Source: Candidatus Yanofskybacteria bacterium
GTDB taxonomy: Bacteria > Patescibacteriota > Minisyncoccia > 2-02-FULL-40-12 > IGHO2-01-FULL-4-A
Direction: 5' to 3'
DNA length: 64,000 bases
Assembly (NCBI GenBank): GCA_016185545.1
Contig: JACPNJ010000005.1
Location: 167,754-231,753, forward strand
Positions 7,958 to 38,839 of this stretch are shown here, one piece after another. Numbering within the stretch: position 1 is the first letter of the stretch; each line of letters begins with the position of its first letter. Under the pieces are notes generated by a model. That model did no database searches and was not told the DNA's origin. It was given only the letters and a program-made list of their open reading frames with translations. The translations under genes and the position numbers were made by a program.

Positions 7958-8042
7958 GTTGGTTAGTAATTTTTGATAAAGTAGGCCCAAGCGAAGTCGT
8001 AAAGACACTCCATAATAAAAAACGAGGTGTTTCCTCGTTCAA

Positions 8043-8529: not shown

Positions 8530-8548
8530 TTTTTCTTTTCAAGATGAT

Positions 8549-17319: not shown

Positions 17320-18258
<939 letters not shown>

Positions 18259-18260
18259 AT

Positions 18261-18381
18261 CCCGTACGAGACACAATGAGTAAACACACAAAAATGGCCG
18301 GTGGCCGGAGTGTCTTTACTGGATAAAATGATAAACTAACTAGGCACGGTTGCGACAGAGTCGCAACCTGTCTCGTACGGG
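18261..18381 (+). repeat. family B palindromic junction element, copy B1
   Basis: terminal inverted repeats cccgtacgagaca.../...tgtctcgtacggg; internal ggttgcgacagagtcgcaacc hairpin; TGA-element-ATG placement. Confidence 0.8.
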
Positions 18382-19431
18382 ATGAAAATATGTTATCTAA
18401 ATATAACCAGGGAAATCCCCCAGCGGGATGTAGTTTATATAAACGGGTTAAAGGAAAATGGTGTTGAAGTAATAGAAATTTTAGATAATTCGCCAAAGTT
18501 AAAAAAATTCTGGCATATTTTTAAAAAACATCGCGCCTTAAACAACAACTACGACATTTTGTGGGTCGGATATTCTGCCCACATACTTGCGCCCTTCGCC
18601 CGTTTAATTTCCAGAAAAAAAATAGTTTTCAACGCACTCTGCTCATTGTACGAGGGACTGATTATATCGCGCAAACAAGCGCCACGGTTTTCACCAAAAG
18701 CTTTTTTGGTTTGGTTACAGGATTTTTTGTCATTTCATTGTTCCTCGTTAATACTTGTGGAAAGCGAGGAACAAAAAAAATTCCTTATCAAAAAGTTTTT
18801 TCTGAAAGAAAAAAAACTGCAAAAAGCTTGGACGGGAGTTAATGACAGGGACTTTTTTTATAATCCGGCAATCAAAAAATCGCCTGTCTTTTCTATAATT
18901 TTTCGCGGCGGATTTCTTCCCGAATCAGGAATTGAACACGTTGCTGAAGCCGCCTCACTTCTTCAAGATGAGAACATACGATTCAGAATTATAGGCACCG
19001 GTGTTATGGAAGATGCCCTAATCAACAAGCTCGCTACTTTTAATTCTAAAAATGTTGAATTTATTTCCGAAAAAATCAAAAGAGTCAGCCGCCCCGAACT
19101 TAACATTAAAATGCAGGAATGCCACATATCGTTAGGCCAGTTATCTGACCACGACCGCCTGAATAGAACCATTCCTCATAAGGCATTCGAGAGTATGGTT
19201 ATGAAAATTCCATATTTGACCGCGCGCAATAAAGCCGTACTGGAATTATTCGCCGAAAACGAAACTTGCTTTTGCTGTAACCCGGCTGACTCTCGTGATT
19301 TGGCCGATAAAATTATTTGGATAAAAAATAATTATGAAACGGCTCAAAAAATCGCCGAAAACGCTTATCAATTATACTCACGCGAACTAACCCCGAAAAT
19401 ACTTGCGAAAAAGGTATTAGAATTGTTTTGA
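18382..19431 (+). CDS. family 1 (GT4-like) glycosyltransferase
   Basis: GT-B C-terminal domain FISEKI...; 349 aa. Confidence 0.6.
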   Translation: MKICYLNITREIPQRDVVYINGLKENGVEVIEILDNSPKLKKFWHIFKKHRALNNNYDILWVGYSAHILAPFARLISRKKIVFNALCSLYEGLIISRKQAPRFSPKAFLVWLQDFLSFHCSSLILVESEEQKKFLIKKFFLKEKKLQKAWTGVNDRDFFYNPAIKKSPVFSIIFRGGFLPESGIEHVAEAASLLQDENIRFRIIGTGVMEDALINKLATFNSKNVEFISEKIKRVSRPELNIKMQECHISLGQLSDHDRLNRTIPHKAFESMVMKIPYLTARNKAVLELFAENETCFCCNPADSRDLADKIIWIKNNYETAQKIAENAYQLYSRELTPKILAKKVLELF

Positions 19432-21348: not shown

Positions 21349-22440
21349 TTACCCTTTTTTATTTAGATTACTTAATATAACATCAATTTCTTTTTTAGCC
21401 ATGTCAAGTGTTATATTTTTCACATCGCCATCGGTACCCTTGAGAACGCGATTAAGTGATCCTGGCGGGCGGTGATACTCTCGCTCATCGGTGGGCCCAA
21501 CTAAGACAAGGTTAGCCACATCAAAGGCATCAGCCGTTACCATTGGGCCGGAATCATTGCCTATGACAAGATCACACTTTGAAATCGCGGCCTTAAATTC
21601 ATCTAGGTTTTGATTAAGCAGGTTAACCGCCGGAACGCCGTCTAAAACCGCGAGCATTGCTGTTATCGGCCCCTCATCTTTACCGGCACCAACAAGCAAA
21701 ATCTTAGCGTTTTGTTCTTCGTAAAAAAATTTAGCTAATTCAGCAAATCTTTCCGCCGGCCACCAGCGCTCGGGCACCGCGCCACCCGGCGCAAAAGCAA
21801 CAATAAAATCGTCCACCGACATATTATTTTGAGTGAAAACATTGTTGATTTTATTTTCAGCTTCTTTGGAAAAATATAACCGGAAATGAGCATCGCCGGT
21901 ATTGGCATTAATTGGCTCCAGCAACTTAAGATATTGTGGCGGGACATATTGACCGGTATAAAACGGCGATGTGATTGCAAATGTTTTTAGAATTGAATAA
22001 GAAACCGAAGTATCTCCTTTGCCGCTCTCGAGTGAAAAAGTAGAAATGGTTTTAATGCCGGCAAGGTATAGCAGAGCAAAACCCATTGTACTGCCAAGAT
22101 TGGCCAAACAAGCAAAATCAATTTTTTCTTTTTTTAATAGTTTAACGACGGTCCAAAAGTTATTTTCGTAATTTATATATTTATCTATATCCGGGTTGTG
22201 TCTGATCACTTCTTCTACCCGACCAGCACCAATAACATATAGTCTGCTATCTGGATACCTGGTCTTAATGGCCCTGAACATGGGCGTGATATAAACAACA
22301 TCGCCCATGTGCGGTTTCCAGCGCAAGATAAGAATCCTTTTGGGGTTTGAGGTAATTTTTTTTGCTCTGCCGCGGAATAAATAATATAAAAGACACAATA
22401 ATAAACTGCCAAGATTTGTAAATTTACTGGATAATTTCAT
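21349..22440 (-). CDS. family 9 glycosyltransferase (ADP-heptose:acceptor heptosyltransferase-like)
   Basis: ILILRWKPHMGDVV and LVIGNDSGPMV GT9 motifs. Confidence 0.75.
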   Translation of the reverse strand: MKLSSKFTNLGSLLLCLLYYLFRGRAKKITSNPKRILILRWKPHMGDVVYITPMFRAIKTRYPDSRLYVIGAGRVEEVIRHNPDIDKYINYENNFWTVVKLLKKEKIDFACLANLGSTMGFALLYLAGIKTISTFSLESGKGDTSVSYSILKTFAITSPFYTGQYVPPQYLKLLEPINANTGDAHFRLYFSKEAENKINNVFTQNNMSVDDFIVAFAPGGAVPERWWPAERFAELAKFFYEEQNAKILLVGAGKDEGPITAMLAVLDGVPAVNLLNQNLDEFKAAISKCDLVIGNDSGPMVTADAFDVANLVLVGPTDEREYHRPPGSLNRVLKGTDGDVKNITLDMAKKEIDVILSNLNKKG

Positions 22441-22547
22441 CCCGTTAGAAGTTTTGCAAACCGGCCACCACTTTGAACAGGTGGCAAACTCACAAATTTT
22501 ATATCAATAAATGCCCTTTATTCCCGTTAGGATTAACTTCTAACGGG
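22441..22547 (-). repeat. family A element, copy A2
   Basis: near-identical reverse complement of A1. Confidence 0.8.
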
Positions 22548-22549
22548 AT

Positions 22550-23407
22550 TCATTTCCTTAAAGTTACGCAAGCCACTGCTCTGGCGGCGGCCACCCCGTC
22601 ATCGTTAATTTTTTTGCCGGTACGGATGTTAAAATATTCCAAACCATCGCATTGCTCCTGTTCACTTATCTGCCAACCATCTTTTGAGTACTTATAGAAA
22701 ACAGTATTAAATTCGGCGGCGCCGAAAGCATCGGCAACTTTTTGCACCATTTGTGAATTAAACTGCTGAAAAAAACCATGGTTTTCGTATCGGCCGAACG
22801 GTACGGTAATAAAAAGTGTTCCGCCCGGCTTCAACATTCTTTTCATTTCAAGAACCGCCGGCAGATAATCGCCGCTGTTTTCCTTGAACCGGTTTTCACC
22901 GGTATATATTTGCGTGTTATCCATTCCTATATGCTCAAGAGTGGAGACACAGGAAATTATATCAAAATTATCGCTTTTGAATGGTGCTTTTCTTATATCG
23001 CTATAAACATACGATACTCCTTTATTCCAAAAACAATTTGATTCCGGATTGAGATTCATTATAAAAAGATTCTTGGGGACAATATTTTTATGTTCAATAA
23101 TTTCCTTAAAATTAAGGGCCGAACCGGCATCCAACATTTCCACACGGTCACCACCGATTTGGGAAATAACCCATGGAATTTCAATGATTCTTTCATCAAT
23201 TCCAATGCCATATTTTTCGGGCAACTTCCCATTATTTTTAAACAGTCTCGATAGTTCATTATTTTTAAGAACTGCGCCAATTTCACGCCATTTATATTCA
23301 AAATAACCCCTGCTCCAAGGCTTGCGGCCGTGCAATTCGTAGGATAATAAATTTCTTCTAGCAATTAAACTTTTTGCAAAATATCTTAATTTTTTGTTAA
23401 ACCCCAT
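22550..23407 (-). CDS. SAM-dependent methyltransferase
   Basis: class I methyltransferase fold (LDAGSALNF...KPGGTLFITVP). Confidence 0.6.
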   Translation of the reverse strand: MGFNKKLRYFAKSLIARRNLLSYELHGRKPWSRGYFEYKWREIGAVLKNNELSRLFKNNGKLPEKYGIGIDERIIEIPWVISQIGGDRVEMLDAGSALNFKEIIEHKNIVPKNLFIMNLNPESNCFWNKGVSYVYSDIRKAPFKSDNFDIISCVSTLEHIGMDNTQIYTGENRFKENSGDYLPAVLEMKRMLKPGGTLFITVPFGRYENHGFFQQFNSQMVQKVADAFGAAEFNTVFYKYSKDGWQISEQEQCDGLEYFNIRTGKKINDDGVAAARAVACVTLRK

Positions 23408-23512
23408 CCCGTTAGAAGTTTTGCAGACCGTCCACCACTTTAAACAGGTGGCAAGTTCACAAGCCTTATATCAATAAATACTTTTTCCCCGTTAGGCTTA
23501 ACTTCTAACGGG
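23408..23512 (-). repeat. family A element, copy A3
   Basis: same termini and interior as A2. Confidence 0.8.
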
Positions 23513-23513
23513 A

Positions 23514-24725
23514 TTAAGCAATACAAATGAAAACTTTACTAAAAATCTCGTTAATCGGCTTCTGATATTTTATCACGAAAAGTTCGCCGTTGTCGTAAAT
23601 TTGGAACACGGTTTTATTGAGGCCCAAGAGCGGTTCCCAAATTTTATTATAAAACCAGCTTGCTTTGGTAAACCGGAAATCGTCATTGTTTGAATAAATC
23701 TGGTTTTCGGAATTGTAGTGGTAGTTGAAGTCCCTTTCGGTTATAAACCCGAGCTGCCTGTTACGCCGATGATATGACAGAAAACAATTTTCAAGAAAAT
23801 CCACTTGGGAAAAAGATATTATCATATCATCCGGATTGACATTCATTTTTTTAACGGCCAAAGCGATTTTGAAATTATTAAATAATTTGCGCGGTTCCAA
23901 TGAATAAAAGATTCTTGGAAAAAATTTAATCTCATCAAAGTACTCCCTTATATCGTCTGGTTTTACAAAATCCCAGCGAGGATGGCGGGAAACGACCAAG
24001 TTTATCTTGGTACTAGGCAAAAAAGACCTTATAAAACGCGCCAGGGATACCGCACTAACCACAAACTCCGTATGCGAAAGGACAAACCAAACTTTACCGT
24101 GAAAATCGGAAAATAGTTCGCGTATATTACGCTCAAAAAGTTCATCTTTTGCGGTGGCTATTCTATTTTCAACAAGCTCTTGTTTGAGGTCGGTTATAAA
24201 AAGTGAGCTTGGCACTTTTGCAAAATATGTTTCGGTAGTCTCAAAGTACTTGTCATTATAGACATTTTTAAAAAGCCGATAAAATAGGTAAGCATTCAGA
24301 CCGAAGCTATAGGCGGAAACCGCCGATGTTGAGTTCACGGCAAAAACACATTTAATTTTTGGAAGATTTTGCCACAAAAACAGTTCAGCCGTTGTTTTGT
24401 CTTGGATTAAATTAAAACCATTTAAGTTTAAAAATAATTGTTTTTTTTCATCAGATGGATGCGGTTTATAATAAAGATCGTACCCACCAAAATTCCGGCG
24501 AATATAATCAAGGCACTCGTTGCATTTAGCAACATAAAACTCCTTGTCTGCAAAACCTGAAGCCAGAATGCCTTTCATATCACTGCCCATAAAAACAACC
24601 ATTTTCGCGCTAAAACCGCTTTTAGAATCCGGTTCTTTTTTGTTTAAACTCAACAAATGAGGCAGTGAAATCCTGACGACATTATTTATTTTTTTATTTA
24701 TACCGACAAATTTTCTTATATCCAT
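23514..24725 (-). CDS. hypothetical GT-B-like transferase with a KPHP motif (paralog of 36483..37706)
   Basis: shares CLDYIR...YDLYYKPHP..FLNL with 36483..37706; HP motif as in CMP-sugar/CDP-alditol transferases. Confidence 0.45.
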   Translation of the reverse strand: MDIRKFVGINKKINNVVRISLPHLLSLNKKEPDSKSGFSAKMVVFMGSDMKGILASGFADKEFYVAKCNECLDYIRRNFGGYDLYYKPHPSDEKKQLFLNLNGFNLIQDKTTAELFLWQNLPKIKCVFAVNSTSAVSAYSFGLNAYLFYRLFKNVYNDKYFETTETYFAKVPSSLFITDLKQELVENRIATAKDELFERNIRELFSDFHGKVWFVLSHTEFVVSAVSLARFIRSFLPSTKINLVVSRHPRWDFVKPDDIREYFDEIKFFPRIFYSLEPRKLFNNFKIALAVKKMNVNPDDMIISFSQVDFLENCFLSYHRRNRQLGFITERDFNYHYNSENQIYSNNDDFRFTKASWFYNKIWEPLLGLNKTVFQIYDNGELFVIKYQKPINEIFSKVFICIA

Positions 24726-24845
24726 CCCGTATGAGACAGGCTGTGATTCTGTCGCAACCGTACCTAGTTAGTTTATCATTGTATCCCGTAAAGACACTTC
24801 GGCCACCAGACCTTCTTGTGTGTTTACCCTTCGTGTCTCGTACGG
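24726..24845 (-). repeat. family B element, copy B2
   Basis: cccgtatgagaca...tgtctcgtacgg; the interior matches the reverse complement of B1. Confidence 0.8.
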
Positions 24846-24871
24846 AATCCATGAGTAAATCTCCGAAAGCC

Positions 24872-26107
24872 CTATTTAGTTTTATAAGCAATGAAGTCTA
24901 CGTGACGAACACCGCATGCACCCTTGAAGAGGTGTTTACATGAATCAATATATGCCTTGACTTCATGTAGGTCTGAATTTTTAACCAAATATACAAATTG
25001 CTTCGCTTCTTTAATAAATTCTGATAACCGAGTTTGCAATGGCTCTAAAACCGATACTTCCTCAAAAGACATATCAACCGCATCAGCTAAATTATTAAAT
25101 TTATCCGCATTAAGTTGAGACTTGGAATTGAAATTTGCAACATAACTGGTCAAGTCTGATAATTCCTTTGAATATTTAAGATAGCCCCCGCCTAGCGCTT
25201 TAACATTTTCCAAATCACCATCTTTTTGTAACAGCCATACGGTTTCTGCAAGAGCAGGCATTCCCGGTATTTCGGCAACATCAAACTTTAACTTATGATG
25301 CACGGAATCTCCAATTACTGGCATTAAAAATGGCGGATAACTTGAATAAAGTTTCAAATTATTTTCTTTTAGCCATTTTAATGTCTCCGCTACGGAAGGA
25401 TCGTCTTGGCTTTGAATTACCCAACGGTCAAATATTATTGCTCTTCGGGTCCGTTTGATAGCCACCTGACTTCGGTCAATATCTTCCTTAAAAAGTTTTT
25501 CACATACATCCACCATATCATCCGGCGATTTGGCATAGTGATACACAGCAAAACGCTGAAGCATGTTTTGAAAACCACCTGCTTTATTAGGATCCCCAAA
25601 AATTAGAAAACCGCCCGGTTTAAGAAATTTGGCAATTTTCTTGAACGCTCCCCGGTTATCTGCAGTATGACTCAAAACTCCTCTACAATGGACGATATCG
25701 TACTTTACAGATGAATCATAATCAAAAATAGATGATTTGATAAACTTGTGCGTACCGCCATTAGAATAGCGCTTAAAAACTTTTTTTGCTATGGCAAGCG
25801 CTTGATCGTTCATCTCTACAAGCGTGCATTTGGCGCCCCATCGCGCTAAAGAAATCGTATTCTCTCCGGTACCAGCACCGAAGTCAATAAGATTGGCATT
25901 AGCAAACATTTTCGGCGGAAATTTAAACAAATCTCTATACATGTATAGCACATTAGCCGTATACTGACGGAATTCTTTTTCTGATTTATCAGAAAAATAA
26001 ATTGAGGGGATTTCCTCCTGAAATGTGCCGAGGGTAGCTTGTTCGACCCGCTTGATTTTAGCAAGTCTTATAGTTTTACTCTTGTGTTTAGTTGATATTT
26101 TTTTCAT
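24872..26107 (-). CDS. SAM-dependent methyltransferase
   Basis: LIDFGAGTGENTISLA motif I; 411 aa. Confidence 0.6.
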   Translation of the reverse strand: MKKISTKHKSKTIRLAKIKRVEQATLGTFQEEIPSIYFSDKSEKEFRQYTANVLYMYRDLFKFPPKMFANANLIDFGAGTGENTISLARWGAKCTLVEMNDQALAIAKKVFKRYSNGGTHKFIKSSIFDYDSSVKYDIVHCRGVLSHTADNRGAFKKIAKFLKPGGFLIFGDPNKAGGFQNMLQRFAVYHYAKSPDDMVDVCEKLFKEDIDRSQVAIKRTRRAIIFDRWVIQSQDDPSVAETLKWLKENNLKLYSSYPPFLMPVIGDSVHHKLKFDVAEIPGMPALAETVWLLQKDGDLENVKALGGGYLKYSKELSDLTSYVANFNSKSQLNADKFNNLADAVDMSFEEVSVLEPLQTRLSEFIKEAKQFVYLVKNSDLHEVKAYIDSCKHLFKGACGVRHVDFIAYKTK

Positions 26108-26213
26108 CCCGTTAGAAGTAGCAACAGCGACAAAAGTTTTAATTACGGCCGCAGTGTCTACTTGAAAAAAAATAACTTTAATTCGTGAACCCGCTAGGTC
26201 TACTTCTAACGGG
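26108..26213 (-). repeat. family A variant element, copy A4
   Basis: same 12-14-bp termini cccgttagaagtag/ctacttctaacggg; different interior. Confidence 0.7.
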
Positions 26214-26226: not shown

Positions 26227-27360
26227 TTAATCGCAGTAGCTTTCAAGCTTACTATCCCGAACCGTATCAAGAGTACTGCAATGAATACCACCCATAAAAT
26301 AAGAATGCCTGAATGATATCGGGATAGGAGTAATTCCGTGTTTCTCAAGTATTTTCATAAGAGGAATCTGAATTTTATCTACAATGACATGCCCGGGATC
26401 AATGGATAAAAAATTCATTCCAATCCAAGGAGAACTGATGGAGCCAAGGCCGGATTTAACTCCCAGCTTTTCAAGTTCCAGATGAGCCGGTTTTCTGACC
26501 TTTTCGTGAATATCCAAGGTCCTCTGTGGCGTCGGAACAATATCGGAAAAATATATCTTGTCCCATTTTTCAAAAACCGGCGGACAGGTCTCGGGACTGA
26601 CCCGTGTAGCATTCAGCATAACCAGACCCGGACGCAATGCCATGGCTGTTGAATCTATGTGGCTTGAGCGATAGATCTCGCTCGTAGTATGGACCCTATA
26701 TTCATCACCCAAAACACTCTGGAGCCATTTGGCGCCGATATTATTACCGGACCGAGAAACAAGATATAAAAGATCCTTGCCCATTCTTAAAGTATTAGCG
26801 GCTTCAAATAATATCTCATCTTCAGTCAGTCGTGTGTATTTTTGTCCGTCATCATATTGGGATTTACCCTCAACGGTATAAACTTCCATGTGGTCGCCTG
26901 GCACGCGCGGCTTAGGACCGGCTACCCACCTAAAACCGCCTTCTTTAAAATACTCGTACAAAACCGGATATAAACCCATGGCTTCAAAATACCTGTGCTG
27001 TTCCTGCGACGGTGATTCAATGACATTACCGCCGACCACTAAATGCAGATCCCTCATATTATAGACATGGTCACCGACTGCGGAGAAAAATGGTGTCGTA
27101 AATAATTTATTGTTATGGGAAATATCGGGACGAAACACTTTCACGCCAAACGATTTTAAAACATTACAAAGCCCCTCTAAATCTTCGTTAATTTCATCAG
27201 TAAGCCACTGGGGATAAGCCTGGCGGGCTAATTTAACTGATTTTTCTAAAAGATCTTCTGAAACTAAGCCATGTTTAAATACCAAGGGAGCATGGCCATC
27301 TCCCCGGCCAACAATTATTTCTCTCAATTTATCCCACTCATTGTGGCTGTTTATTTTCAT
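26227..27360 (-). CDS. amidinotransferase-family protein
   Basis: N-terminal INSHNEWDKLREIIVG (amidinotransferase signature) and C-terminal GGIHCST catalytic-Cys motif. Confidence 0.65.
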   Translation of the reverse strand: MKINSHNEWDKLREIIVGRGDGHAPLVFKHGLVSEDLLEKSVKLARQAYPQWLTDEINEDLEGLCNVLKSFGVKVFRPDISHNNKLFTTPFFSAVGDHVYNMRDLHLVVGGNVIESPSQEQHRYFEAMGLYPVLYEYFKEGGFRWVAGPKPRVPGDHMEVYTVEGKSQYDDGQKYTRLTEDEILFEAANTLRMGKDLLYLVSRSGNNIGAKWLQSVLGDEYRVHTTSEIYRSSHIDSTAMALRPGLVMLNATRVSPETCPPVFEKWDKIYFSDIVPTPQRTLDIHEKVRKPAHLELEKLGVKSGLGSISSPWIGMNFLSIDPGHVIVDKIQIPLMKILEKHGITPIPISFRHSYFMGGIHCSTLDTVRDSKLESYCD

Positions 27361-27483
27361 CCCGTTAGAGGCAGGTTACGCTCTTTGAGCGTAACCGTAC
27401 CCAAATAGTTTAAATGATAATTCCCGTTTGTATGTTTCTTGCACCGCTATTCTTGATTAATTGCCTGTTGTGCCTCTAACGGG
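27361..27483 (-). repeat. family A variant element, copy A5
   Basis: termini cccgttagaggc/gcctctaacggg; internal ggttacgctctttgagcgtaacc hairpin. Confidence 0.7.
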
Positions 27484-28584
27484 ACGAGTCATCATTCTCA
27501 TTATATTAGCATGGTCTTCTCTGGCAATCTCGTATTTGCTTTTATTCAACTGGCTTGGATCATCCCGTACGAGACAGGTTGCGACCCTGTCGCAACCGTG
27601 CCTAGTTAGTTTATCATTATCTCCAACAGGGACACTCCGACCACCGGCCTTTTTTGTGTGTTTATTCGTCGTGTCTCGTACGGGATCATCCCTAGGAAAC
27701 ATATTGGATTTAAAACCGCATTCAACGCCCAATTGACTTAAAATCTTAAGAGTACTGTCATTGTAAGAATTGGCAGGATGGGCCATGTCCACGGGCGGCC
27801 TGCCGCAAACTCTTTGTATGTGTTCATAATTTTTTTGATACTCTTCTTGCTGTCGTTCAAAAGGAAGTTCGGCAAGCATCATGGGGTGTGAATATGAATG
27901 CAGTCCGATTACATGGCCTTGCCTATTTAAGTAAGCAAGGTTTTCATTTGACATCCATATGTTTTTAGAAAGATCGGCCAAATTCAACCCTTGGTCTTGA
28001 ATAATCGCATCCATAATTATTTCAAATTCCTCACGGCTTAACACGCGATCCCTAATCAAACGAAAGCGCATGTCATTGGTTGAGTAAAACGGGAAAGTCT
28101 TGGAATACCTTACCATATCGGTCTCTTCTAAAACTTTCCTGGCATTATTTCCAAATTTTGATTGAAAAATTTTATCAAAAAAAATATTGTAAAAGTCATC
28201 AATATCTTTAAAAAACTTAGAGCGAAAAACCCGATAAATTTCAAATTTGCCAAGGCCGCCCTCAAATACACTGGAATAGACGAACCAAAATGCTTTTAGG
28301 TTGTACTTGTCCAAAACCGGCAAGACAACATCAAATTGACATAATAGCCCATCATCCAGGGTTATGCAAACATCCCGATTGGTTAATTGGTTCGCCCCCA
28401 ATCGCTTAAGCCATTCTTTAGGATCAAGTATCCGATCTAATCCTACAAACATAAGAATGGCTTCAAAATCCGACATTGATATCGAACCTTGCCCTTTGTA
28501 ATGTTTCCGTTCGTCATGAAAATGATGGAACATTATCCCGTGAGCAACCGAACTGAGATATTTTTTTTTAGATAATTCGCTCAA
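27457..28584 (-). CDS. polysaccharide deacetylase (NodB-homology domain); the 3' ~230 nt of the ORF reads through elements B3 and A5
   Basis: ITLDDG NodB motif and HSYSHP His motif; the frame stays open through the repeat elements, so the true C-terminus is uncertain. Confidence 0.6.
   Translation of the reverse strand: MSELSKKKYLSSVAHGIMFHHFHDERKHYKGQGSISMSDFEAILMFVGLDRILDPKEWLKRLGANQLTNRDVCITLDDGLLCQFDVVLPVLDKYNLKAFWFVYSSVFEGGLGKFEIYRVFRSKFFKDIDDFYNIFFDKIFQSKFGNNARKVLEETDMVRYSKTFPFYSTNDMRFRLIRDRVLSREEFEIIMDAIIQDQGLNLADLSKNIWMSNENLAYLNRQGHVIGLHSYSHPMMLAELPFERQQEEYQKNYEHIQRVCGRPPVDMAHPANSYNDSTLKILSQLGVECGFKSNMFPRDDPVRDTTNKHTKKAGGRSVPVGDNDKLTRHGCDRVATCLVRDDPSQLNKSKYEIAREDHANIMRMMTRPVRGTTGN
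27564..27684 (-). repeat. family B element, copy B3
   Basis: cccgtacgagaca...tgtctcgtacggg; in tandem with A5. Confidence 0.8.
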
Positions 28585-29725
28585 TTTTTTTAATATCTAA
28601 ATAATCCTCGGAAGAAAAACTTAAACCCGAGGTAATTTTTTGAAAGCCCTCGTAAAAACGCGGCTCACTGACAAGGTTATGAATATTGGCAGTTGGTACA
28701 AGAATCAACATTTCATTATTAACCCATGCTTCTTTATTGGAGTCGTTGGAACCCATAAGAGCTTCGTGCAGTTTGTCGCCGACACGATCTCCAATGTATT
28801 TTATTTTTATCACAGCCCCAGAAGACCGCTGCTTCAGTCGTGGATGATTGGGTCTTCTGGGGCTGGATTCCGCCCCACGGTCAAGCCGCCAAGCTTGACT
28901 GTGGGTGATGGTACCACGGGCTTGGCCGTGGGGCTCCATTTTTTTTCCAGAGTAATATTTTTTTATAAATATACTGGCTAGATCTCCCAAGCGGATTGAC
29001 GGCATTTTCAAAATAAAAATTTCACCGCCCGAACAAAGCTGGGCCGCTTTCAGAGTCAAACTAACGGCTTGTTTTATGGACATGAGAAAGCGGGTCGCGT
29101 CTTTGTTGGTAACATTAATCGCGCCGCTGGCTTCTACTTGTTTTACCCACATCGGCAGTACTGAACCATCGGCCCAGGCAACATTGCCGAATCTTACACA
29201 GGCAAGCTTCATTTTATCTCCCAGAAAAAAACTGGAATTTATAAAAAGCTTCTCCATCATAAGCTTGGAAGCGCCAAGCACATTTAAGGGGTTGGCAACT
29301 TTATCCGTGGAAATGGCAATAATTTTTTCAACACCGGCGTGCAAAGCCGCGTCAATAATATTATGTGAACCGACAATGTTAGTTTTCATCGCTTCTGACG
29401 GATTATACTCGCAAAACGGAACATGTTTTAAGGCGGCGGCGTGAAAAACTATGTCTACATTTTTAAAAGCAAGATGTAAACGCTCTTGGTCTCTTATGTC
29501 TCCAATCAACATCCTTAAGTTTTTTGGGTAACGAAGCGCCTCCAATAGGTGGTATTGGCGTGTTTCATTTCTGGATAAAACCCTGATCTGCTTCGGCTTG
29601 GACTTTAAAAGCTGGCGAACCAGTTCTGCGCCAATACTACCAGTGCCTCCAGTTACCAAAATGGTTTTATTTTGAAACTCGTTAATCATAGAAAACAACT
29701 TAAAAATGCAAACCTCAAATCTCAA
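28568..29725 (-). CDS. UDP-GlcNAc 4,6-dehydratase (PseB/FlaA1/CapD-like), with an in-frame 43-aa insertion
   Basis: ILVTGGTGSIG...VLSRNE...HAAALKHVP...YIGDRVGDKLHEAL; 385 aa versus ~335 for homologs. Confidence 0.75.
   Translation of the reverse strand: MRFEVCIFKLFSMINEFQNKTILVTGGTGSIGAELVRQLLKSKPKQIRVLSRNETRQYHLLEALRYPKNLRMLIGDIRDQERLHLAFKNVDIVFHAAALKHVPFCEYNPSEAMKTNIVGSHNIIDAALHAGVEKIIAISTDKVANPLNVLGASKLMMEKLFINSSFFLGDKMKLACVRFGNVAWADGSVLPMWVKQVEASGAINVTNKDATRFLMSIKQAVSLTLKAAQLCSGGEIFILKMPSIRLGDLASIFIKKYYSGKKMEPHGQARGTITHSQAWRLDRGAESSPRRPNHPRLKQRSSGAVIKIKYIGDRVGDKLHEALMGSNDSNKEAWVNNEMLILVPTANIHNLVSEPRFYEGFQKITSGLSFSSEDYLDIKKIERII
28811..28939 (-). repeat. GC-rich triple-hairpin element inserted in-frame in a coding sequence
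   Basis: 129 nt at ~62% GC versus ~40% background; stems gccccagaagacc/ggtcttctggggc, cccacggtcaagc/gcttgactgtggg, ccacgg/ccgtgg. Confidence 0.6.
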
Positions 29726-30150
29726 AATGTAATTTAAAATTCCAAACTATTTTCTGCCTTTCATGGTTAGTACGCCAGCGCCAATAATTTTAGAAATTTC
29801 TTCGGCTTCTTTAAGCAATGGGTTAATTTGATTTCTTAAATTAGGCGTACTTTCAATGAGCAAAATCAACCAATATTTTGTCTCATTAGAACTCTTAAGA
29901 GCAATCTGAAAAAATTTTAAATAATCCAATTTTGAGCTAGCGGCTCGAGCTTCGAAAACGTTGGCTCCAACTGAAGTTGCAGATCGAATCAGTTGATCGG
30001 CTATCGCCCACAAATTCCTACTTTTTCTTACTTCTCCACAAAGTTTAATTATTGCTAAAGAAAAATCAATAAGCCGTTTATTAAATTGCATTTTAAAATT
30101 TACATTTTCATTTTGCATTTTGAGATTTGAATTTTGAATTGGGTAATTTT
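29703..30150. mobile_element. inverted-repeat-bounded module carrying a four-helix-bundle (23S rRNA IVS-type) protein gene
   Basis: AT-rich inverted-repeat arms with core caaatctcaaaatg (29703-29746; 30092-30150, reverse complement) flank the ORF. Confidence 0.55.
29747..30118 (-). CDS. four-helix-bundle protein (23S rRNA intervening-sequence protein family)
   Basis: WAIADQLIRSATSVGANVFEA...YLKFFQIALKSSNETKYWL is characteristic; the first 9 codons lie in the inverted-repeat arm, so the probable start is MQFNK (~30091). Confidence 0.7.
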   Translation of the reverse strand: MQNENVNFKMQFNKRLIDFSLAIIKLCGEVRKSRNLWAIADQLIRSATSVGANVFEARAASSKLDYLKFFQIALKSSNETKYWLILLIESTPNLRNQINPLLKEAEEISKIIGAGVLTMKGRK

Positions 30151-31270
30151 AACTATACTTTTTCAGGACATTAGCAAGGGTATGTGAAATATACTTAATA
30201 TCTTTCTCTTTCAATCCTATATAAAAAGGCAGGGCCAGCGACGACTGACTGACCGCTTCCGAAACAGGAAAGTCCCCTTCTTTGAAACCAAATTTGTCTT
30301 TATAAAAACTGAACAGGTGAATAGACGGCAAATATGGCTTAGTGCTTATTCCTATTTTTTGTAAATCTTCTATAACTCGGTTTCTATCGGTTTTCTTATT
30401 TTTTATCTTTATCACATACACAAACCAGGTAGGATTATTACCTTCGGCTATCTTTGGGGCCTCTACAAGACCAGAAAACGTCTCTAAATGCTTGCTATAC
30501 CAGCCAGCGAGCGCTTGTCTATGTTTTATCATAAAATCGAGCTTCTGCAATTGGGCAGTACCCAAAGCCGCACTCATTTCGTCCATTCTATAATTATATC
30601 CAAGATACTGATGGTCTAACCATTGCATATTCTCGGCTCGACCCTGATTGCGCAAGCTCGCACAAAGCTCATATATTTTCCTGTTGTTTGTTACGACCAT
30701 CCCGCCTTCAGCTGTGGTTATTTGCTTATTGGGGTAGAAAGCAAAAACAGCCGATTCGCCAAAAGTGCCGACCTTTTTCCCCTTATATTCAGCACAAATG
30801 CTTTCGCAGGCATCTTCAATTATTTTAAGTTTATGTTTTTTGGCAATTTTAATTATCGGGTCCATGTCCACCGCCTGGCCGAAAATATGGACTACCAAAA
30901 TGGCTTTTGTTCTTTTAGTAAGACGTTTCTCAATTTCGGCCGGTTCCATGTTATAAGTAACAGGGTCTATATCAACAAAAACCGGCTTCGCGCCGACATA
31001 CAAAATACAATTTGCTGACGCAATAAAAGAAAATGGGGTAGTTATCACTTCGTCGCCTGGACCGATACCAGCAGCGATCATTGCTAGATGCAGACCGGCC
31101 GTACCGCTTGATACGGCACAGGCGTATTTTGTGCCGATTTTTCTGGCAAACAACATTTCAAATTCTTTATACTTGGGGCCTAAGCTTAAATTTCCAGAAC
31201 GCAAAACTTCGAGAACTGTTCGTTCTTCTGATTTCGTTATGTAAGGTTTTGCCAGTTGATATTTAGACAT
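30149..31270 (-). CDS. DegT/DnrJ/EryC1/StrS-family PLP-dependent sugar aminotransferase
   Basis: AFYPNKQITTAEGGMVVTN (Lys/PLP motif); 373 aa. Confidence 0.8.
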   Translation of the reverse strand: MSKYQLAKPYITKSEERTVLEVLRSGNLSLGPKYKEFEMLFARKIGTKYACAVSSGTAGLHLAMIAAGIGPGDEVITTPFSFIASANCILYVGAKPVFVDIDPVTYNMEPAEIEKRLTKRTKAILVVHIFGQAVDMDPIIKIAKKHKLKIIEDACESICAEYKGKKVGTFGESAVFAFYPNKQITTAEGGMVVTNNRKIYELCASLRNQGRAENMQWLDHQYLGYNYRMDEMSAALGTAQLQKLDFMIKHRQALAGWYSKHLETFSGLVEAPKIAEGNNPTWFVYVIKIKNKKTDRNRVIEDLQKIGISTKPYLPSIHLFSFYKDKFGFKEGDFPVSEAVSQSSLALPFYIGLKEKDIKYISHTLANVLKKYS

Positions 31271-33955: not shown

Positions 33956-34738
33956 CTATATCGTCCACCCGCCGTCAACGACAATATTCTGGCCGGTAAT
34001 ATAAGCGGAAGCATCGGATAACAAAAACAGCAGCGCTCCGGCAACATCTTCCTGTTTGGCCATGCGGCGCGGCGCCAATTTGACTTTCCCAACATATCTT
34101 TTTACAAACGATTCCGGCTGATTATCAAACACCCCCCCGGGAGATATGGCGTTAACCCGGATGCCGTGCGGCCCCAAGTAAGACGCAAGATATCTAGCCA
34201 GGTTGACGATGCCGCCCTTTATTGCCGCGTATTCCACCGGCATGGTCATATGCGTCCCTTCGTAAATTTCAAATTTAGGAGCGGCTATTCCATAGATTGA
34301 GCCCATCAATACGATACTGCCTCCCTTTTGTTCTTTCATTGTCCGCGACACTTCCTTGGTCATCAGGAAATATCCCCCCAAATGAGTTGACAGGTTGTCG
34401 CAAAAATCCTCATAAGTCACATCTTCAAACTTTCTCCCATAATTTTTGTTTCTGGGATAAGCGCAATTTACCAGAGCATCAATTCTTCTAAATTTTTTGA
34501 GAATATTTTTAATGGCTCTTTTAACGCTCGCCGGTTTGGTAATGTCGCATTGCTGAAATAAAATATTTTTATTTTTGGTATCACGGACAAGGCGGCCAGC
34601 GAGATTTTTGCCCGTTTTAGGATTGGTATCAATGATAACCACCTTGGCCCCGTTTTCGGCGCAAGCTCTGCAAAAAGCCGAGCCAATTAGACCGGCCCCG
34701 CCGGTAATAACACAAACTTTCCTCGCGATATTAAACAT
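33956..34738 (-). CDS. short-chain dehydrogenase/reductase
   Basis: VITGGAGLIGSA Rossmann motif. Confidence 0.7.
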   Translation of the reverse strand: MFNIARKVCVITGGAGLIGSAFCRACAENGAKVVIIDTNPKTGKNLAGRLVRDTKNKNILFQQCDITKPASVKRAIKNILKKFRRIDALVNCAYPRNKNYGRKFEDVTYEDFCDNLSTHLGGYFLMTKEVSRTMKEQKGGSIVLMGSIYGIAAPKFEIYEGTHMTMPVEYAAIKGGIVNLARYLASYLGPHGIRVNAISPGGVFDNQPESFVKRYVGKVKLAPRRMAKQEDVAGALLFLLSDASAYITGQNIVVDGGWTI

Positions 34739-35678
34739 TGTTTTGTTTTAACGCTAGGGCATTTTTCAAATCCCCTAGCGCCTCGTTAAAATTACTATGC
34801 TTCACGCGTTTTAAAACTTTTTTAATAAAAAACGATAGCTCGTTAAGATACATTTTATTTCCGTCAACTTTAACATTTATAAACGATTCTCTTTTCGGCA
34901 ATCTTACGGCTATTTCGTTTTTTAAACTGTCCCAAGTGGCTGTTCCCTTGTCTCCGATTATTTCGCAGTATCTCCGACCCGGATATCGAAGGTAATCTTG
35001 GTGAATTGAAACCACGGTTCCTGTTTTTGACTCAAATACTCCTTCGGCTATATCCTCCGATTTTATATTAAACATTCCCGCTCTTTTTACCAGTCCGGCT
35101 TTAAATTTTATATTTTCATCAATCAGCCAAGCCGGATAATTTATTTCGTGAATCAGGTCCAGCACTACGCCTCCGCCCCTTTGGGCATCATACGAATATA
35201 TTTTTTTATAATCTCTTTTTCGCCAAGTCCTTAAATCTTGGCCGACTGAAGCTCTTATAAAAACCGGCCGGCCGATTATTTTCTTTTTTATTATCTTTTT
35301 TAATTCAATAATCGGTTTATGAAACTGGAGGCAATAGCCGACAAAAAATACCGGCGTCCTGCTTAGAAGTTTTTTTATTTCATTTGCTTTTTTCAAATTA
35401 TGAAATAGCGGTTTCTCAACAAATATTCCTTTTGGCTTTTGCTTTAGGCATTTAATTATCGCGTCAGCGTGTTTGTATGTTTCATTGGTTATGAAAAATA
35501 CATCGGCCGTATTTTTGAAAAATTCATTTTCTGATTTAAAAATTTCGTCCTTTAAAAATAAATCAGTCCTTTTGGTTAGAATTTTAACCTTGACCCTTGG
35601 ATAGAGTTTTTTAATATTCCGGTAATGCCTTCCACCGATTGAACCGAATCCAATTATGCCAATAGTTTTTATCATCAT
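34731..35678 (-). CDS. Gfo/Idh/MocA-family oxidoreductase
   Basis: N-terminal IGIIGFGSIGGRH NAD-binding motif. Confidence 0.7.
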   Translation of the reverse strand: MMIKTIGIIGFGSIGGRHYRNIKKLYPRVKVKILTKRTDLFLKDEIFKSENEFFKNTADVFFITNETYKHADAIIKCLKQKPKGIFVEKPLFHNLKKANEIKKLLSRTPVFFVGYCLQFHKPIIELKKIIKKKIIGRPVFIRASVGQDLRTWRKRDYKKIYSYDAQRGGGVVLDLIHEINYPAWLIDENIKFKAGLVKRAGMFNIKSEDIAEGVFESKTGTVVSIHQDYLRYPGRRYCEIIGDKGTATWDSLKNEIAVRLPKRESFINVKVDGNKMYLNELSFFIKKVLKRVKHSNFNEALGDLKNALALKQNNV

Positions 35679-35680
35679 CT

Positions 35681-35768
35681 AAATTCAAAAAGCAAATCTC
35701 AAATCTCAAAATCTAATTTATAATTAAAAACTTTCATTTTGGATTTTGAGATTGAAATTTTGAATTTT
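35681..35768. repeat. 'caaatctcaaaat' AT-rich palindromic hairpin (empty copy of the 4HB-module inverted repeat)
   Basis: gcaaatctcaaatctcaaaatc ... gattttgagattg. Confidence 0.65.
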
Positions 35769-36476
35769 TTTCTCTATTTTCTTTTTGTGGGCAAATATAG
35801 TTTCCGCCAAAATCCAATCTTCTATGCCGTCCAAATCAATTGAGCGCCATTTCGGACAGACAACGCCGCGGGTATCGGCATTAATAAATTTTCTGGTTTT
35901 TATAAATTCATTGATTCTTATCATATAGACCATACAGCCATTGAGCAAATAACCGGCGGGCCAAACCTGCCTATTGGTGCTTTCTTTTTCAATTTTATTT
36001 GCCAAAATTAATTTGCCTTGGTCATCTAAATGATAAAGACGCGGATGCGTGTCACATATTGTACAGACGGATCTGACCTTGGAATCTAGCATCCGTTTCC
36101 AGCATTTTTTGATATCGGATATTTCTCTCAATGGCGAAGTTGTTTGTAAAAGAGTTATTATATCCGGCTCATAACCATCCTCTTCTTTTAGTCTTTTAAG
36201 TAGAAGTAAAACGGCGTCAACGACAGGCGATTTATCACCAGCCAACTCCTTGGGCCTTAAAAACGGCACCTCGGCGCCGTATTTTCTGGCCACTGCGGCG
36301 ATTTTCTCATCTTCTGTATCTACAACAATCCTATCAAACAAGCCGGTTTCCCTGGCTTGCTCTATGGCATGTGCAATTAGCGGTTTACCATGAAAAATTT
36401 TGATATTCTTGCCGGGTATGCCTTTAGACCCGCCTCTGGCCGGAATAATGGCTAAATTTTTTATTGATTTTTGCAT
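35724..36476 (-). CDS. neuA: acylneuraminate cytidylyltransferase (CMP-nonulosonic acid synthetase, NeuA/LegF/PseF-like)
   Basis: AIIPARGGSKGIPGKNI...TSPLR; the last ~14 codons are encoded by the palindromic repeat. Confidence 0.8.
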   Translation of the reverse strand: MQKSIKNLAIIPARGGSKGIPGKNIKIFHGKPLIAHAIEQARETGLFDRIVVDTEDEKIAAVARKYGAEVPFLRPKELAGDKSPVVDAVLLLLKRLKEEDGYEPDIITLLQTTSPLREISDIKKCWKRMLDSKVRSVCTICDTHPRLYHLDDQGKLILANKIEKESTNRQVWPAGYLLNGCMVYMIRINEFIKTRKFINADTRGVVCPKWRSIDLDGIEDWILAETIFAHKKKIEKKIQNFNLKIQNESF

Positions 36477-37706: not shown

Positions 37707-37715
37707 GAGTAGAAT

Positions 37716-37800
37716 AATTTAAACCTCAAATCTCAAAACTCAAAATTTAAATTTTGAATTTTAAATTACATTTTGAGATTTGAGATTTGCATTTTGAATT
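37716..37800. repeat. 'caaatctcaaaat' AT-rich palindromic hairpin (second empty copy)
   Basis: aacctcaaatctcaaaactcaaaattt ... cattttgagatttgagatttgcatttt. Confidence 0.65.
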
Positions 37801-37876
37801 CATTAAAAATACGGCTCTTTTAATGCCGTATTAATTTACCATAAAAACAAGGGTATGGCTAGATCAAAATATACTC

Positions 37877-38839
37877 TTACTCCAGGGTATTTTTTCTCCT
37901 TAATTTGGCCTCAATGGGTTTTTCTGAATCCAATAAAACTTTTGCGGGTTGGCCCAAATAAATAGGTAAATCCCTAAGCTGTACCGTCAATCTGCCCAAA
38001 CCGTATAATTCAAGACTGGCCGCTTGGTCTGTCCCCCACATAGCCCTATCCAGCGTAATGTGCCGCTCAATGACGCAGGCGCCTAATGAGGCGGCGACCA
38101 ATGAAGAATATACCCCGACCTCATGACCGGAGTAGCCGATATGAACCTTGGGGTATTTTTTAATCAGCCGGGGAATATTGGCTAAATGCAATTCATTGTC
38201 TTTACCGGGGTAAGTGGAGGTGCAATGCAAAATTACAAGATTTTCTTTCCCTAAAAATTTAACGATTTTTTCAATTCTCTCATCGTCGGTCATACCAACC
38301 GAGACTATAATAGGCTTACCCTTGGCTTTGATATGGGCCATCAGATTCCTGTCCAGGTTACATGCAGAAGCGATTTTGTAACAGGGCAGGTCAAACTGTT
38401 CAAGAAAGTCAACGCTTCCTTCATCCCATGGTGAAGCAAACCATAAAATTCCTTTCTGCCGGCAATATCGGTCAATTTCCCGATATTCTTTTTGCGTCAG
38501 CTCCAAAGCCCATTTAAGATCCCCGTTCGTAGAATTTTCAAAATCGGAATTGGTCAGTCGCTTGACGGCTTCATCGGAAAGGACTCCTCGTCTAACGGCA
38601 TTTCTCAACACGCCTTCGTTAACTTGGCGCGGCTTTGCCAATTCTTCAGCGGTATAGACAACCGGCACGGTTCTTTTTTGAAATTTAACCGCGTCACATC
38701 TCTGCGCAACTGCCCCGTCAATAAGCTTTTTAGCAATCTCAATATCGCCGTTATGGTTTATTCCAATCTCCGCAACTATAAAAACCGGCTGGTTGTATCC
38801 AATCTCTTTGCTTCCTATTTTCAACATCTCGGCTCCCAA
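37877..38839 (-). CDS. NeuB-family (sialic-acid-synthase-like) enzyme without a SAF domain
   Basis: VFIVAEIGINHNGD...DAVKFQKR. Confidence 0.7.
   Translation of the reverse strand: MGAEMLKIGSKEIGYNQPVFIVAEIGINHNGDIEIAKKLIDGAVAQRCDAVKFQKRTVPVVYTAEELAKPRQVNEGVLRNAVRRGVLSDEAVKRLTNSDFENSTNGDLKWALELTQKEYREIDRYCRQKGILWFASPWDEGSVDFLEQFDLPCYKIASACNLDRNLMAHIKAKGKPIIVSVGMTDDERIEKIVKFLGKENLVILHCTSTYPGKDNELHLANIPRLIKKYPKVHIGYSGHEVGVYSSLVAASLGACVIERHITLDRAMWGTDQAASLELYGLGRLTVQLRDLPIYLGQPAKVLLDSEKPIEAKLRRKNTLE

Follow-up and report, generated by a model that had tools for sequence, protein, structure and literature searches.

For more than three decades, there has been no agreement on the function or the origin of the intervening sequences (IVSs) that interrupt bacterial rRNA genes, or of the "S23p" open reading frame (ORF) that some of them carry; PF05635, the family of that ORF, is a large orphan family (5,626 clusters at 50% identity in a single-sequence search). 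The 23S IVS of Coxiella is 428–444 nt long and has a 28-bp terminal inverted-repeat stem that RNase III cuts in the middle; its S23p (PF05635) ORF has two or three tandem GACAGAT heptamers just before the ATG, the 5′ cut falls at the first of these repeats, and their copy number varies between strains (PMC4990558). IVSs without an ORF, such as those in helices 25 and 45 of Salmonella 23S rRNA (~83–110 nt), are also excised by RNase III and coexist with ORF-bearing ones (PMC2672173; PMC4990558). Furthermore, PF05635 ORFs have been described in 16S and 23S insertions of the candidate phyla radiation (CPR) (10.1101/2024.02.27.582315). Could such an element also live in an mRNA? Here, we describe a gene for a four-helix-bundle (4HB) protein that lies between inverted arms of tandem heptamers inside a glycan operon, in a 64,000-nucleotide stretch of Candidatus Yanofskybacteria bacterium DNA (GCA_016185545.1, contig JACPNJ010000005.1, positions 167,754–231,753 of the forward strand; hereafter, the window). 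We consider it fairly probable that the element is a promoterless IVS-type passenger cassette in an mRNA operon, the stem of which insulates the insert and serves as an RNase III substrate. The window offers an IVS-type cassette living in an mRNA operon, together with an orthologous empty junction and gene-less derivatives.

The cassette is wedged between two genes of the operon. Two arm types can be told apart, type B being the 5′ arm of the cassette and type A the reverse complement of its 3′ arm. The features, in the order of transcription, are as follows.
30149–31270, minus strand: upstream host gene, DegT/PseC-type aminotransferase (Pfam).
29698–30141, minus strand: whole cassette (5′ arm, 4HB gene and 3′ arm), ~444 bp, with limits from blastn homology.
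30091–30141, minus strand: 5′ arm, type B, about seven heptamers (nhmmer E 4.9e-11).
29747–30118, minus strand: 4HB protein gene, 123 aa (PF05635, TIGR02436, 2RLD).
29698–29746, minus strand: 3′ arm, reverse complement of type A, TTTGGAATTTTAAATTACATTTTGAGATTTGAGGTTTGCATTTTTAAG (nhmmer E 6.9e-09).
28568–29692, minus strand: downstream host gene, PseB/FlaA1-type dehydratase (Pfam).

These limits correct those of a first-pass annotation made from the letters alone, which had placed the unit at 29703–30150. The 5′ arm (units AATTCAA, AATTCAA, ATCTCAA, AATGCAA, AATGAAA and ATGTAAA) contains the 4HB ATG (30118) and the first ~9 codons, in agreement with the earlier view that an arm encodes the start of the gene, and the 3′ arm starts directly past the TAG stop codon. 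The DegT stop codon lies 8 nt before the 5′ arm, and the 3′ arm, which ends at 29698, is followed after 5 nt by the PseB-like ATG (29692). For the PseB-like gene, the mechanical call was an ORF of 28568–29725 that starts at a TTG within the 3′ arm (MRFEVCIFKLFS-MINEF..); according to orthologues, the true start is the ATG at 29692.

As judged by profile matches, the 4HB gene is a member of the PF05635/TIGR02436 rRNA-IVS protein family, as had been proposed. The ORF scores 74.7 bits against PF05635 (E 7.8e-21; cut-off 33.8), with residues 11–113 covering profile positions 4–105 of 106, and 88.6 bits against TIGR02436 (cut-off 24); it also matches PDB entry 2RLD, which has five chains, at E 3.9e-16, a similarity of sequence only. 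A protein with 100% identity is on record at NCBI from a Candidatus Yanofskybacteria metagenome-assembled genome, which places the window in the CPR. The motif R-x3-S-x3-N-x2-E is present (RSATSVGANVFE, within QLIRSATSVGANVFEA), and the family motif G-x2-R-x3-S-x3-N-x2-E (PMC3936711) is found in full save that the leading G is a Q. The gene is the only one inside the cassette and is co-directional with the host operon; no promoter of its own was seen within the cassette and, therefore, it is probably transcribed with the host operon. Across 10 cassettes, the nonsynonymous divergence (dN) of the 4HB protein is 0.155 while the synonymous divergence (dS) is saturated, which indicates that the protein is under purifying selection and that the copies are old.

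How far does this anatomy follow that of an rRNA IVS? Like the Coxiella IVS (PMC4990558), the window cassette of ~445 bp has stem-forming terminal inverted repeats with a PF05635/S23p gene of ~120 codons in the loop, heptamers directly upstream of its ATG, and the ORF in the sense of the host transcript. On the other hand, the Coxiella and Leptospira IVSs sit at the tip of an rRNA helix, whereas the window element is not at a 23S or 16S helix tip: its flanks are the DegT-type and PseB-type genes, and it is inserted between a stop codon and a start codon in an mRNA operon. The window ORF is under purifying selection, whereas the Coxiella ORF is reported to be decaying and is probably untranslated. 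The anatomy of the cassette matches that of the Coxiella IVS in every respect tested, save the mRNA host transcript. No Rfam family, rRNA included, reached its gathering threshold in the window or in 20 related loci, and a tRNA scan of the window found none.

The same arms also occur without the gene. An nhmmer profile made from the arms of 12 cassettes (24 arms) found exactly seven arms in the window, of which two belong to the cassette (29698–29746, plus; 30091–30141, minus) and five to the following elements.
35682–35769, minus strand: gene-less hairpin, type B arm followed by the reverse complement of type A, in cassette polarity (repeat finder, nhmmer and fold; nhmmer arms 35682–35730, plus, and 35729–35766, minus).
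37713–37801, minus strand: gene-less hairpin, type A arm paired with an A-like arm (repeat finder, nhmmer and fold; nhmmer arms 37716–37747, plus, and 37751–37801, minus).
59297–59331, minus strand: lone 3′ arm, reverse complement of type A (nhmmer E 8.9e-06; nhmmer arm on plus).

The hairpins at 35.7 kb and 37.7 kb are two arms minus the gene, with the same two arm types, as the first-pass annotation had recognized. It had called them nearly perfect; they proved to be imperfect, with arms 77–82% complementary and RNA folds of −22.2 kcal/mol (z −2.55) and −27.3 kcal/mol (z −5.69), respectively. The 3′ arm of the cassette is 94% complementary to 37752–37798, and the lone arm is 97% complementary to 37770–37800. 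The latter had been described as a half copy; it is present and is specifically a 3′-type arm, which begins right after the TAA of a PMT_2-family gene (59327–60997) and ends 5 nt short of the ATG (59291) of an ABC-2 permease gene, and it has no partner arm and no significant fold (z −0.88). The 37.7-kb hairpin is located between a terminator-like hairpin, which follows a NeuB-like gene, and the ATG (37706) of a 407-aa ORF. In size, these gene-less hairpins of 85 nt are comparable to the ORF-less Salmonella IVSs; unlike those IVSs of rRNA, they stand between protein genes, and one supplies C-terminal codons.

That one, the 35.7-kb hairpin, encodes the last ~15 codons of the NeuA-like ORF (35724–36476), as had been suspected, and ends at the ATG (35678) of a GFO-type gene. 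The ORF ends ..KKKIEK-KIQNFNLKIQNESF*, with an arm-encoded tail, whereas a 78% identical NeuA orthologue (locus L093) ends ..KKKIEKEIKKYDEST* without it. This difference indicates that the hairpin replaced the NeuA-like gene's own tail; furthermore, the GFO genes downstream are not orthologous (26% identity), so the hairpin also marks a break in synteny. Could the arms be mere AT-rich low-complexity sequence, which was the possibility set against the element at the outset? They are indeed 7-nt periodic, but their similarity to one another is specific: the arm 21-mer GCAAAYCTCAAATCTCAAAAT has seven matches in the window with up to three mismatches, compared with 0.02 expected, and none of 100 shuffles reached seven.

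When one genome per species was scanned for the 21-mer, 27 loci came up, most of them from Patescibacteria (Saccharibacteria, Berkelbacteria and others); in metagenomes, the 4HB protein as query led to 52 loci. In all-against-all blastn, the cassette matched at least 15 unrelated CPR contexts at 72–78% nucleotide identity, and the homology was confined to window positions 29687/29703–30140/30148, with unrelated flanks. Between outer arm ends, the cassettes measured 435–467 bp (n = 16), and 14 of the 16 fell within 438–446 bp. Moreover, the junction that is filled in the window is empty in relatives. In L092/L093 (GCA_030647835.1; DegT 83% identical), the DegT and PseB-like genes overlap in ATGATAAATGA, and in L094 (GCA_964585975.1), the PseB-like gene of which has 88%-class identity to that of the window, a 43-aa insert aside, the two genes are 4 nt apart. 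These orthologous DegT/PseB junctions without a cassette indicate that the cassette is an insertion of ~450 bp at a coupled stop/start junction. The DegT tail is remodeled at the filled junction (window compared with L092/L094), and no transposase gene lies inside the cassette.

Solo hairpins, 81–154 bp long, were found in the fetched loci as well (n = 14). The loop of one (L019:3749–3898) keeps the first ~15 and last ~14 codons of a 4HB gene, and the loop of another (L005:998–1105) keeps ..KGKR*; these end codons indicate that some solo hairpins are internal-deletion derivatives of the cassette, a relationship that has its parallel in the ORF-bearing and ORF-less IVSs of rRNA (PMC2672173). 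The idea of an IVS-like mobile cassette outside rRNA genes, with which the first-pass annotation began, is therefore upheld as to kind by the discrete unit, the empty junctions and the Coxiella-like anatomy, but not as to present-day activity, since synonymous sites are saturated. The same saturation between copies indicates that arm similarity reflects selection and not recent movement; arm identity was 0.80 within a genome compared with 0.78 between genomes, which is only slight homogenization. Neither the arm 21-mer nor a relative of the 4HB protein was found in viral contigs, where a phage vector was sought. In the search for an rRNA-borne copy, the ten places shown for P0025 all lay at one NTP-transferase/Sua5 junction.

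We then come to the constraint on the arms, for which 14 cassettes were aligned (alignment A1). An arm is built of about seven 7-nt units; in the 5′ arm, a unit comprises CAAA and three variable bases, and the 3′ arm has the complement. With a period of 7 nt, CAAA and TTTG, respectively, never vary, and pairwise identity at the three intervening bases is only ~0.3–0.6. The mean pairwise identity was 0.79–0.82 for the non-coding arms, 0.49 for third codon positions and 0.37–0.52 for the DNA that immediately flanks the arms. Only two of these loci had been reached by way of the arms, the rest by way of the protein, so the conservation of the arms is not an effect of ascertainment. Selection, not recency, accounts for this conservation. 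The minimum-free-energy fold predicted for the whole cassette has its arms paired, which closes the structure and encloses the 4HB start codon. In the register that we defined, 85% of cells paired across the 14 cassettes; shifting one arm against the other by a single column lowered this share to 55–58%, and by three columns to ~20%. The flank duplexes averaged −44.7 kcal/mol compared with −32.5 for shuffles. These results show that the arms form a register-specific but imperfect stem and carry a sequence constraint beyond pairing.

How might such a cassette work? Pairing of the arms would give a stem that is imperfect but long (at least 25 bp), with the 4HB start codon sequestered inside it. 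The stem would close off the insert and keep the upstream stop and the downstream start adjacent, and this juxtaposition of the host cistrons, which in the empty junction would be translated by overlap coupling, would lessen the polar damage that the insertion does. On the model of rRNA IVSs, for which cleavage has been demonstrated experimentally, the stem is probably an RNase III substrate; the cut would free the 4HB mRNA and divide the operon transcript, and the gene-less hairpins would keep only the processing or insulating function. In addition to pairing, a sequence-specific reader of CAAA/TTTG may be involved, possibly the pentameric 4HB protein itself; it is the conservation of CAAA/TTTG beyond the needs of pairing that points to this added reader.

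Several observations weigh against a passenger cassette of this kind. We infer the RNase III cleavage only from the rRNA IVSs of other bacteria, and among the loci fetched there was no rRNA-borne copy with these arms. The covariation of the stem is marginal (24 of 500 shuffles reached the observed score), and the stem is A-U rich and interrupted, with variable triplets that are often mismatched, also in an RNAalifold run; the invariance of CAAA/TTTG is not what a pure pairing constraint predicts. Duplex energies did not differ between sense and antisense (Wilcoxon p 0.96) and, consequently, the selected structure cannot be assigned to RNA rather than DNA. No target-site duplication was seen at the single filled/empty junction compared (window versus L092/L094), which is remodeled. 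Finally, partner-less arms and long A/C-rich heptamer arrays stand upstream of many genes in a Saccharibacteria metagenome-assembled genome (MAG; locus L005), which means that arm sequence has an existence outside the cassette.

Is the design of the window cassette general? The loci that bear on this question were reached through peptide words of one query and through one plasmid collection, and they are not an unbiased census. Upstream of metagenome 4HB genes that are 33–50% identical to the query, in hosts of 30–71% GC, we observed tandem units with a period of 7 (sometimes 8 or 6), and downstream of these genes, the reverse-complement array. The units are lineage-specific: GGAATKC, CTCAAAG, GTTCAxA, AGCGAAx, AGTGCAGT, GGGATAAT and ATACTTCC. 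When the upstream flank was set against the reverse-complemented downstream flank, at least three 8-mers were common to both at 29 of 36 4HB genes, compared with 15 of 207 control ORFs, which were other ORFs of the same loci (Mann–Whitney p 5e-19 for flank sharing). Three syntenic groups recur across diverged genomes, between pyruvate dehydrogenase (PDH) E1-beta and E2, before NuoG and before SdhB, with 4HB proteins that are 44–88% identical and neighboring proteins that are 69–86% identical. Orthologous PDH cassettes (e.g., L069 versus L074) have unrelated arm units, yet within each element the two arms still match. These comparisons show that the PDH, Nuo and Sdh cassettes have been long in residence, with concerted change of both arms. 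In two high-GC PDH cassettes (L068:~200–640 and L070), the complementarity extends past the tandem units into the host genes, where the 3′ end of the upstream gene, its final codons and stop (CGATGGGGCTTCTGTAG), is complementary to the downstream start region (..ATGCCCATCG); the stem base there thus includes both host-gene boundaries.

In complete plasmid records from cultured organisms, short-unit arrays flanked the gene in 12 of 12 cases, with a clear inverted arrangement in about seven. The records were as follows.
Nostoc punctiforme plasmid: units GTCGGAG/GTCGGAA.
Planktothrix NIES-204: units CCCCAAT (the cyanobacterial short tandemly repeated repetitive unit STRR1) and CGTAAAT.
Bernardetia plasmid: unit TTAGTGA, ~17 copies.
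Gloeocapsa plasmid and one Chlorohelix plasmid: unit TTTTAGA; another Chlorohelix plasmid has ATGAAGG.
Euhalothece plasmid: unit ACTGGTC, ~13 copies.
Treponema, Anabaena, Pseudanabaena and Chondrinema plasmids: flanking short-unit arrays.
Monoglobus: pseudogene between hsdS and hsdR.

The hosts of these plasmid-borne cassettes are restriction-modification, CRISPR-cas, defense and efflux operons, in agreement with the PF05635 genes reported as wedged in cas operons (PMC3936711). For the window, PADLOC returned no match to a defense system. In Gloeocapsa pGLO7428.03 (L102) and Chlorohelix plasmid 2 (L106), which belong to two phyla, a cyanobacterium and a member of the Chloroflexota, the unit TTTTAGA/TCTAAAA occurs at one and the same DUF1156/Swt1-family HEPN junction, which suggests that the whole defense locus was transferred together with the cassette. 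Taken across many phyla, a PF05635 gene between inverted arrays of lineage-specific 6–8-nt units, usually wedged between co-directional operon genes and running from stop codon to start codon in core and defense operons, appears to be a design that holds across the family. Targeted searches of the open-access literature found no paper linking PF05635 genes in general to flanking tandem-unit inverted repeats. The window cassette is a known kind, an IVS cassette, in a new setting; the family-wide rule and the heptamer link are the more interesting result, and the rule is testable in culturable hosts.

Could the arrays be chiefly protein-binding sites? The pentameric 4HB protein, or another factor, might read one 7–8-nt unit per subunit on single-stranded RNA or DNA, much like the trp RNA-binding attenuation protein (TRAP), for autoregulation or to mark the cassette, and pairing would then be secondary. 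We hold this to be a possible but doubtful account. It would explain the invariant CAAA/TTTG with intervening triplets that vary and are often unpaired, and arms that are better conserved than synonymous sites despite a saturated dS; it is also consistent with the five chains of 2RLD, with units that shift with protein lineage across the family, with the single arrays upstream of other genes in cassette-carrying genomes, and with the binding of reverse transcriptase and RNA by the Avd relatives of the family in diversity-generating retroelements (DGRs). However, arms of 3 to >17 units are unlike the fixed footprint of a pentamer, and simple binding needs no consistent inverted arrangement. Syntenic cassettes with proteins 51–63% identical already have unrelated units, moreover, and neutral turnover with concerted evolution of the arms explains the shift equally well. 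We also judge it unlikely that the cassette is a DNA-level foldback element, or miniature inverted-repeat transposable element, mobilized in trans (e.g., by an IS200/RAYT-type Y1 transposase acting on single-stranded hairpins), in which the 4HB gene would be cargo, the arms transposon ends and any RNA role incidental. The cassette has no transposase gene and no visible target duplication, the saturated dS between copies gives no sign of recent bursts, and arm identity within genomes is barely above that between genomes, while the PDH, Nuo and Sdh cassettes have stayed syntenic over long divergence. Lineage-specific units would require a matching transposase each time, and the near-constant co-orientation with host transcripts and the stop-to-start placement point to selection at the RNA level. 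On the side of transposition are the terminal inverted arms of a discrete unit in unrelated contexts, the filled and empty junctions, the internal-deletion derivatives, the several copies in the 64-kb window and in single MAGs, two other palindromic insertion families in the window, and Y1_Tnp genes within ~2 kb of heptamer arms in 2 of the 27 arm-bearing genome loci (L005 and L009). The DNA-level and RNA-level readings are mutually compatible.

Other explanations dispense with an element or give it a different function. The arms might be a common AT-rich, 7-nt-periodic leader or spacer of CPR genomes (A/C-rich translation enhancers with chance complements), the 4HB gene merely lying between two of them. 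The partner-less A/C-rich heptamer arrays directly upstream of many L005 start codons agree with this idea, as do the arm sequences in frame inside ORFs and the lack of Shine–Dalgarno motifs at window genes downstream of arms, where other window genes have them. We nevertheless disfavor it as very improbable, given the sharp-ended homology of the whole 445-bp unit in at least 15 contexts, its constant length, an empty orthologous junction, an inverted arrangement specific to 4HB genes relative to the 207 control ORFs of the same loci, and the same architecture with quite different, often GC-rich units in phyla outside the CPR. Slighter still is the chance that the hairpins are terminators, attenuators or outward-facing promoters that partition the glycan operon. 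The solo hairpins of L014, in which a GC-rich stem with a TTCG loop tip is followed by a T-rich arm, speak for this, and so do the position of the 37.7-kb hairpin just past a terminator-like hairpin and weak 9-of-12 promoter matches overlapping two arms. But a consensus scan found no terminator-like site at any arm, the window hairpins have no GC-rich stem with a U tract, promoter-like sites are not enriched (34 versus 26.9 ± 5.4), with −10 candidates overlapping the downstream ATG, and termination is unlikely within a biosynthetic operon, the genes of which are required jointly. That the gene and hairpins are integron-type cassettes with attC sites is scarcely credible, even though imperfect hairpins of 85–90 nt separate genes and the 4HB gene appears promoterless. 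We rejected this idea on anatomy, as the arms bracket the gene on both sides instead of following it and the hairpin sequences are devoid of RYYYAAC/GTTRRRY cores; the neighbors, furthermore, form a coherent nonulosonic-acid pathway, and no integrase was seen next to the arms, in a window that was not scanned exhaustively for one.

Several other repeat systems invite comparison with the cassette. The hairpins of Correia elements are cleaved by RNase III, which alters mRNA stability; these elements have 26-bp terminal inverted repeats and a TA target duplication, and we know of no gene-carrying parent for them. Like Correia/nemis elements, repetitive extragenic palindromes and bacterial interspersed mosaic elements (REP/BIME) and enterobacterial repetitive intergenic consensus (ERIC) sequences, the window arms are multi-copy short inverted repeats co-transcribed with neighboring genes, but, unlike Correia elements, they are tandem heptamer arrays, show no duplication and have a gene-carrying parent. 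The Foldback transposons of Drosophila have long terminal inverted repeats made of short tandem repeats, and many copies consist of arms only; they are eukaryotic, much larger and move at the DNA level, and we imply no relationship to the cassette. Rickettsia palindromic elements are palindromic repeats that protein-coding genes tolerate in frame, as they do arm sequence here in the NeuA-like tail, in UvrD-like helicases and in proteins of locus L012, but they measure 100–150 bp and are without heptamer periodicity or an associated gene.

The Avd barrel is a pentamer that acts bound to nucleic acid and reverse transcriptase. It belongs to the same fold superfamily as the 4HB protein (PF05635-like, cd16375; PMC10053308), but the 4HB gene here has no adjacent reverse transcriptase, template repeat or variable repeat. 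A DGR was considered and rejected, as the neighbors are glycan enzymes and no pair of repeats of the template/variable type lies near the 4HB gene. Heptamers are enriched, without explanation, in Xanthomonas and Nostoc (PMC4692102). The 4HB arms are like the cyanobacterial STRR sequences and the simple sequence repeats (SSRs) of Xanthomonas and Nostoc in being tandem 7-nt intergenic units, and the Planktothrix arms include the STRR1 unit; unlike the arms, these heptamers have been described without a link to PF05635 genes. Could all of these be related? One conjecture, which we put forward as a long shot, is that the flanking arrays are cognate recognition sites of ring-shaped 4HB proteins, one 7–8-nt unit per subunit, and that the gene with its inverted arrays forms a self-insulating RNA (or single-stranded DNA) module suited to any transcript. 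Unexplained heptamer repeats (the cyanobacterial STRR, the Xanthomonas and Nostoc SSRs and the "CAAAAT" arrays of CPR genomes) would then derive from such modules as they spread and decayed, which gives these enigmatic repeats a possible origin.

Arm-like sequence was also seen outside cassettes. Locus L005 contains A/C-rich 7-nt arrays with almost no G (1–160, 1595–1706, 2380–2570, 4488–4533 and 5592–5630); these arrays have no partner, immediately precede the start codons of unrelated genes, e.g., an NYN-domain gene, and look like unstructured leaders. The arms are one form of a broader class of A/C-rich sequence with a 7-nt period that occurs in CPR genomes. In-frame translation of arm sequence was seen at L016:5362–7398, L010:2243–4096 (minus strand), and L012:1988–2683 and 3369–4028: two UvrD/PcrA-like helicases have ..INVPPRGIG-KSQNANLKSQNENPKI.. 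following a conserved motif, and two paralogous membrane-anchored proteins of L012 carry YYMKSQNANLKSQNDNAKSK. In one Patescibacteria MAG, the solo hairpins (L014:1804–1914, 2595–2704 and 4474–4580; L021:~7816–7930) have a GC-rich mini-stem at the tip, between an A-rich and a T-rich arm and in one case with a TTCG tetraloop (CGCAC-TTCG-GTGCG), and they therefore resemble bidirectional terminators. Genes for Y1 transposases (IS200-like, PF01797, E 8e-16) lie at L005:3259–3957 and L009:4914–5426 (minus strand), the L005 copy being flanked by GGAAATG-type repeats and inverted GGTGTCA/TGACACC motifs; it is possible that these two are trans-acting mobilizers of hairpin elements. The arms have practical consequences as well. 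They break metagenome assemblies, many cassette contigs ending within them, and a look-up of the DegT gene returned only 1.7-kb contigs ending in the arm; an exact search of the same index for the 4HB protein, with either start codon, gave no record. The arms also create false gene ends, e.g., the tail of the NeuA-like ORF and the extended 5′ end of the PseB-like one.

The host operon is a long glycan operon, all on the minus strand, the nonulosonic-acid pathway genes of which form one coherent set (Pfam and ORF list). Its order of transcription is a NeuB-like gene (37877–38839), the 37.7-kb hairpin, the 407-aa ORF, the NeuA-like gene (35724–36476) and the 35.7-kb hairpin; then the GFO-type oxidoreductase gene (34731–35678), a short-chain dehydrogenase/reductase gene, NeuB, NeuC and an acetyltransferase gene; and, lastly, the DegT-type aminotransferase gene (30149–31270), the 4HB gene (29747–30118) and the PseB-type dehydratase gene (28568–29692). 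Within the PseB-like gene, at ~28810–28938, there is a GC-rich palindromic insert of 129 nt that is in frame and encodes 43 aa (EPHGQARGTITHSQAWRLDRGAESSPRRPNHPRLKQRSSGAV), with the inverted pairs CCCCACGG/CCGTGGGG and GCCCCAGAAGACC/GGTCTTCTGGGGC; the near-identical orthologue L094:3189–4181 lacks it. This insert resembles an insertion of the Rickettsia-palindromic-element type.

A second repeat family in the window, ~115–135 nt long, has the terminal inverted repeats ATCCCGT(T/A)(A/C)GAG ... CTC(T/G)(A/T)ACGGGAT and an internal hairpin, GGTTGCGAC-AGA-GTCGCAACC; it had no match in Rfam. Its copies lie at the following positions.
15540–15668
18255–18390
22410–22553
23377–23515
24717–24852
~26105–26130
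27358–27480
27560–27686

At seven places, the 3′ end of the repeat abuts the ATG of the next gene (..ACGGG/ATG, the slash marking the boundary), and the copy at 27560–27686 lies in frame inside a polysaccharide-deacetylase-like ORF (27457–28584). Finally, an IS481-family transposase gene (E 3.4e-57) occupies 6962–7921, between direct repeats of 98 nt that are 97% identical (6819–6916 and 8404–8501), and the same locus has 35-nt repeats that contain a GC hairpin (7926–7960 and 8498–8532).

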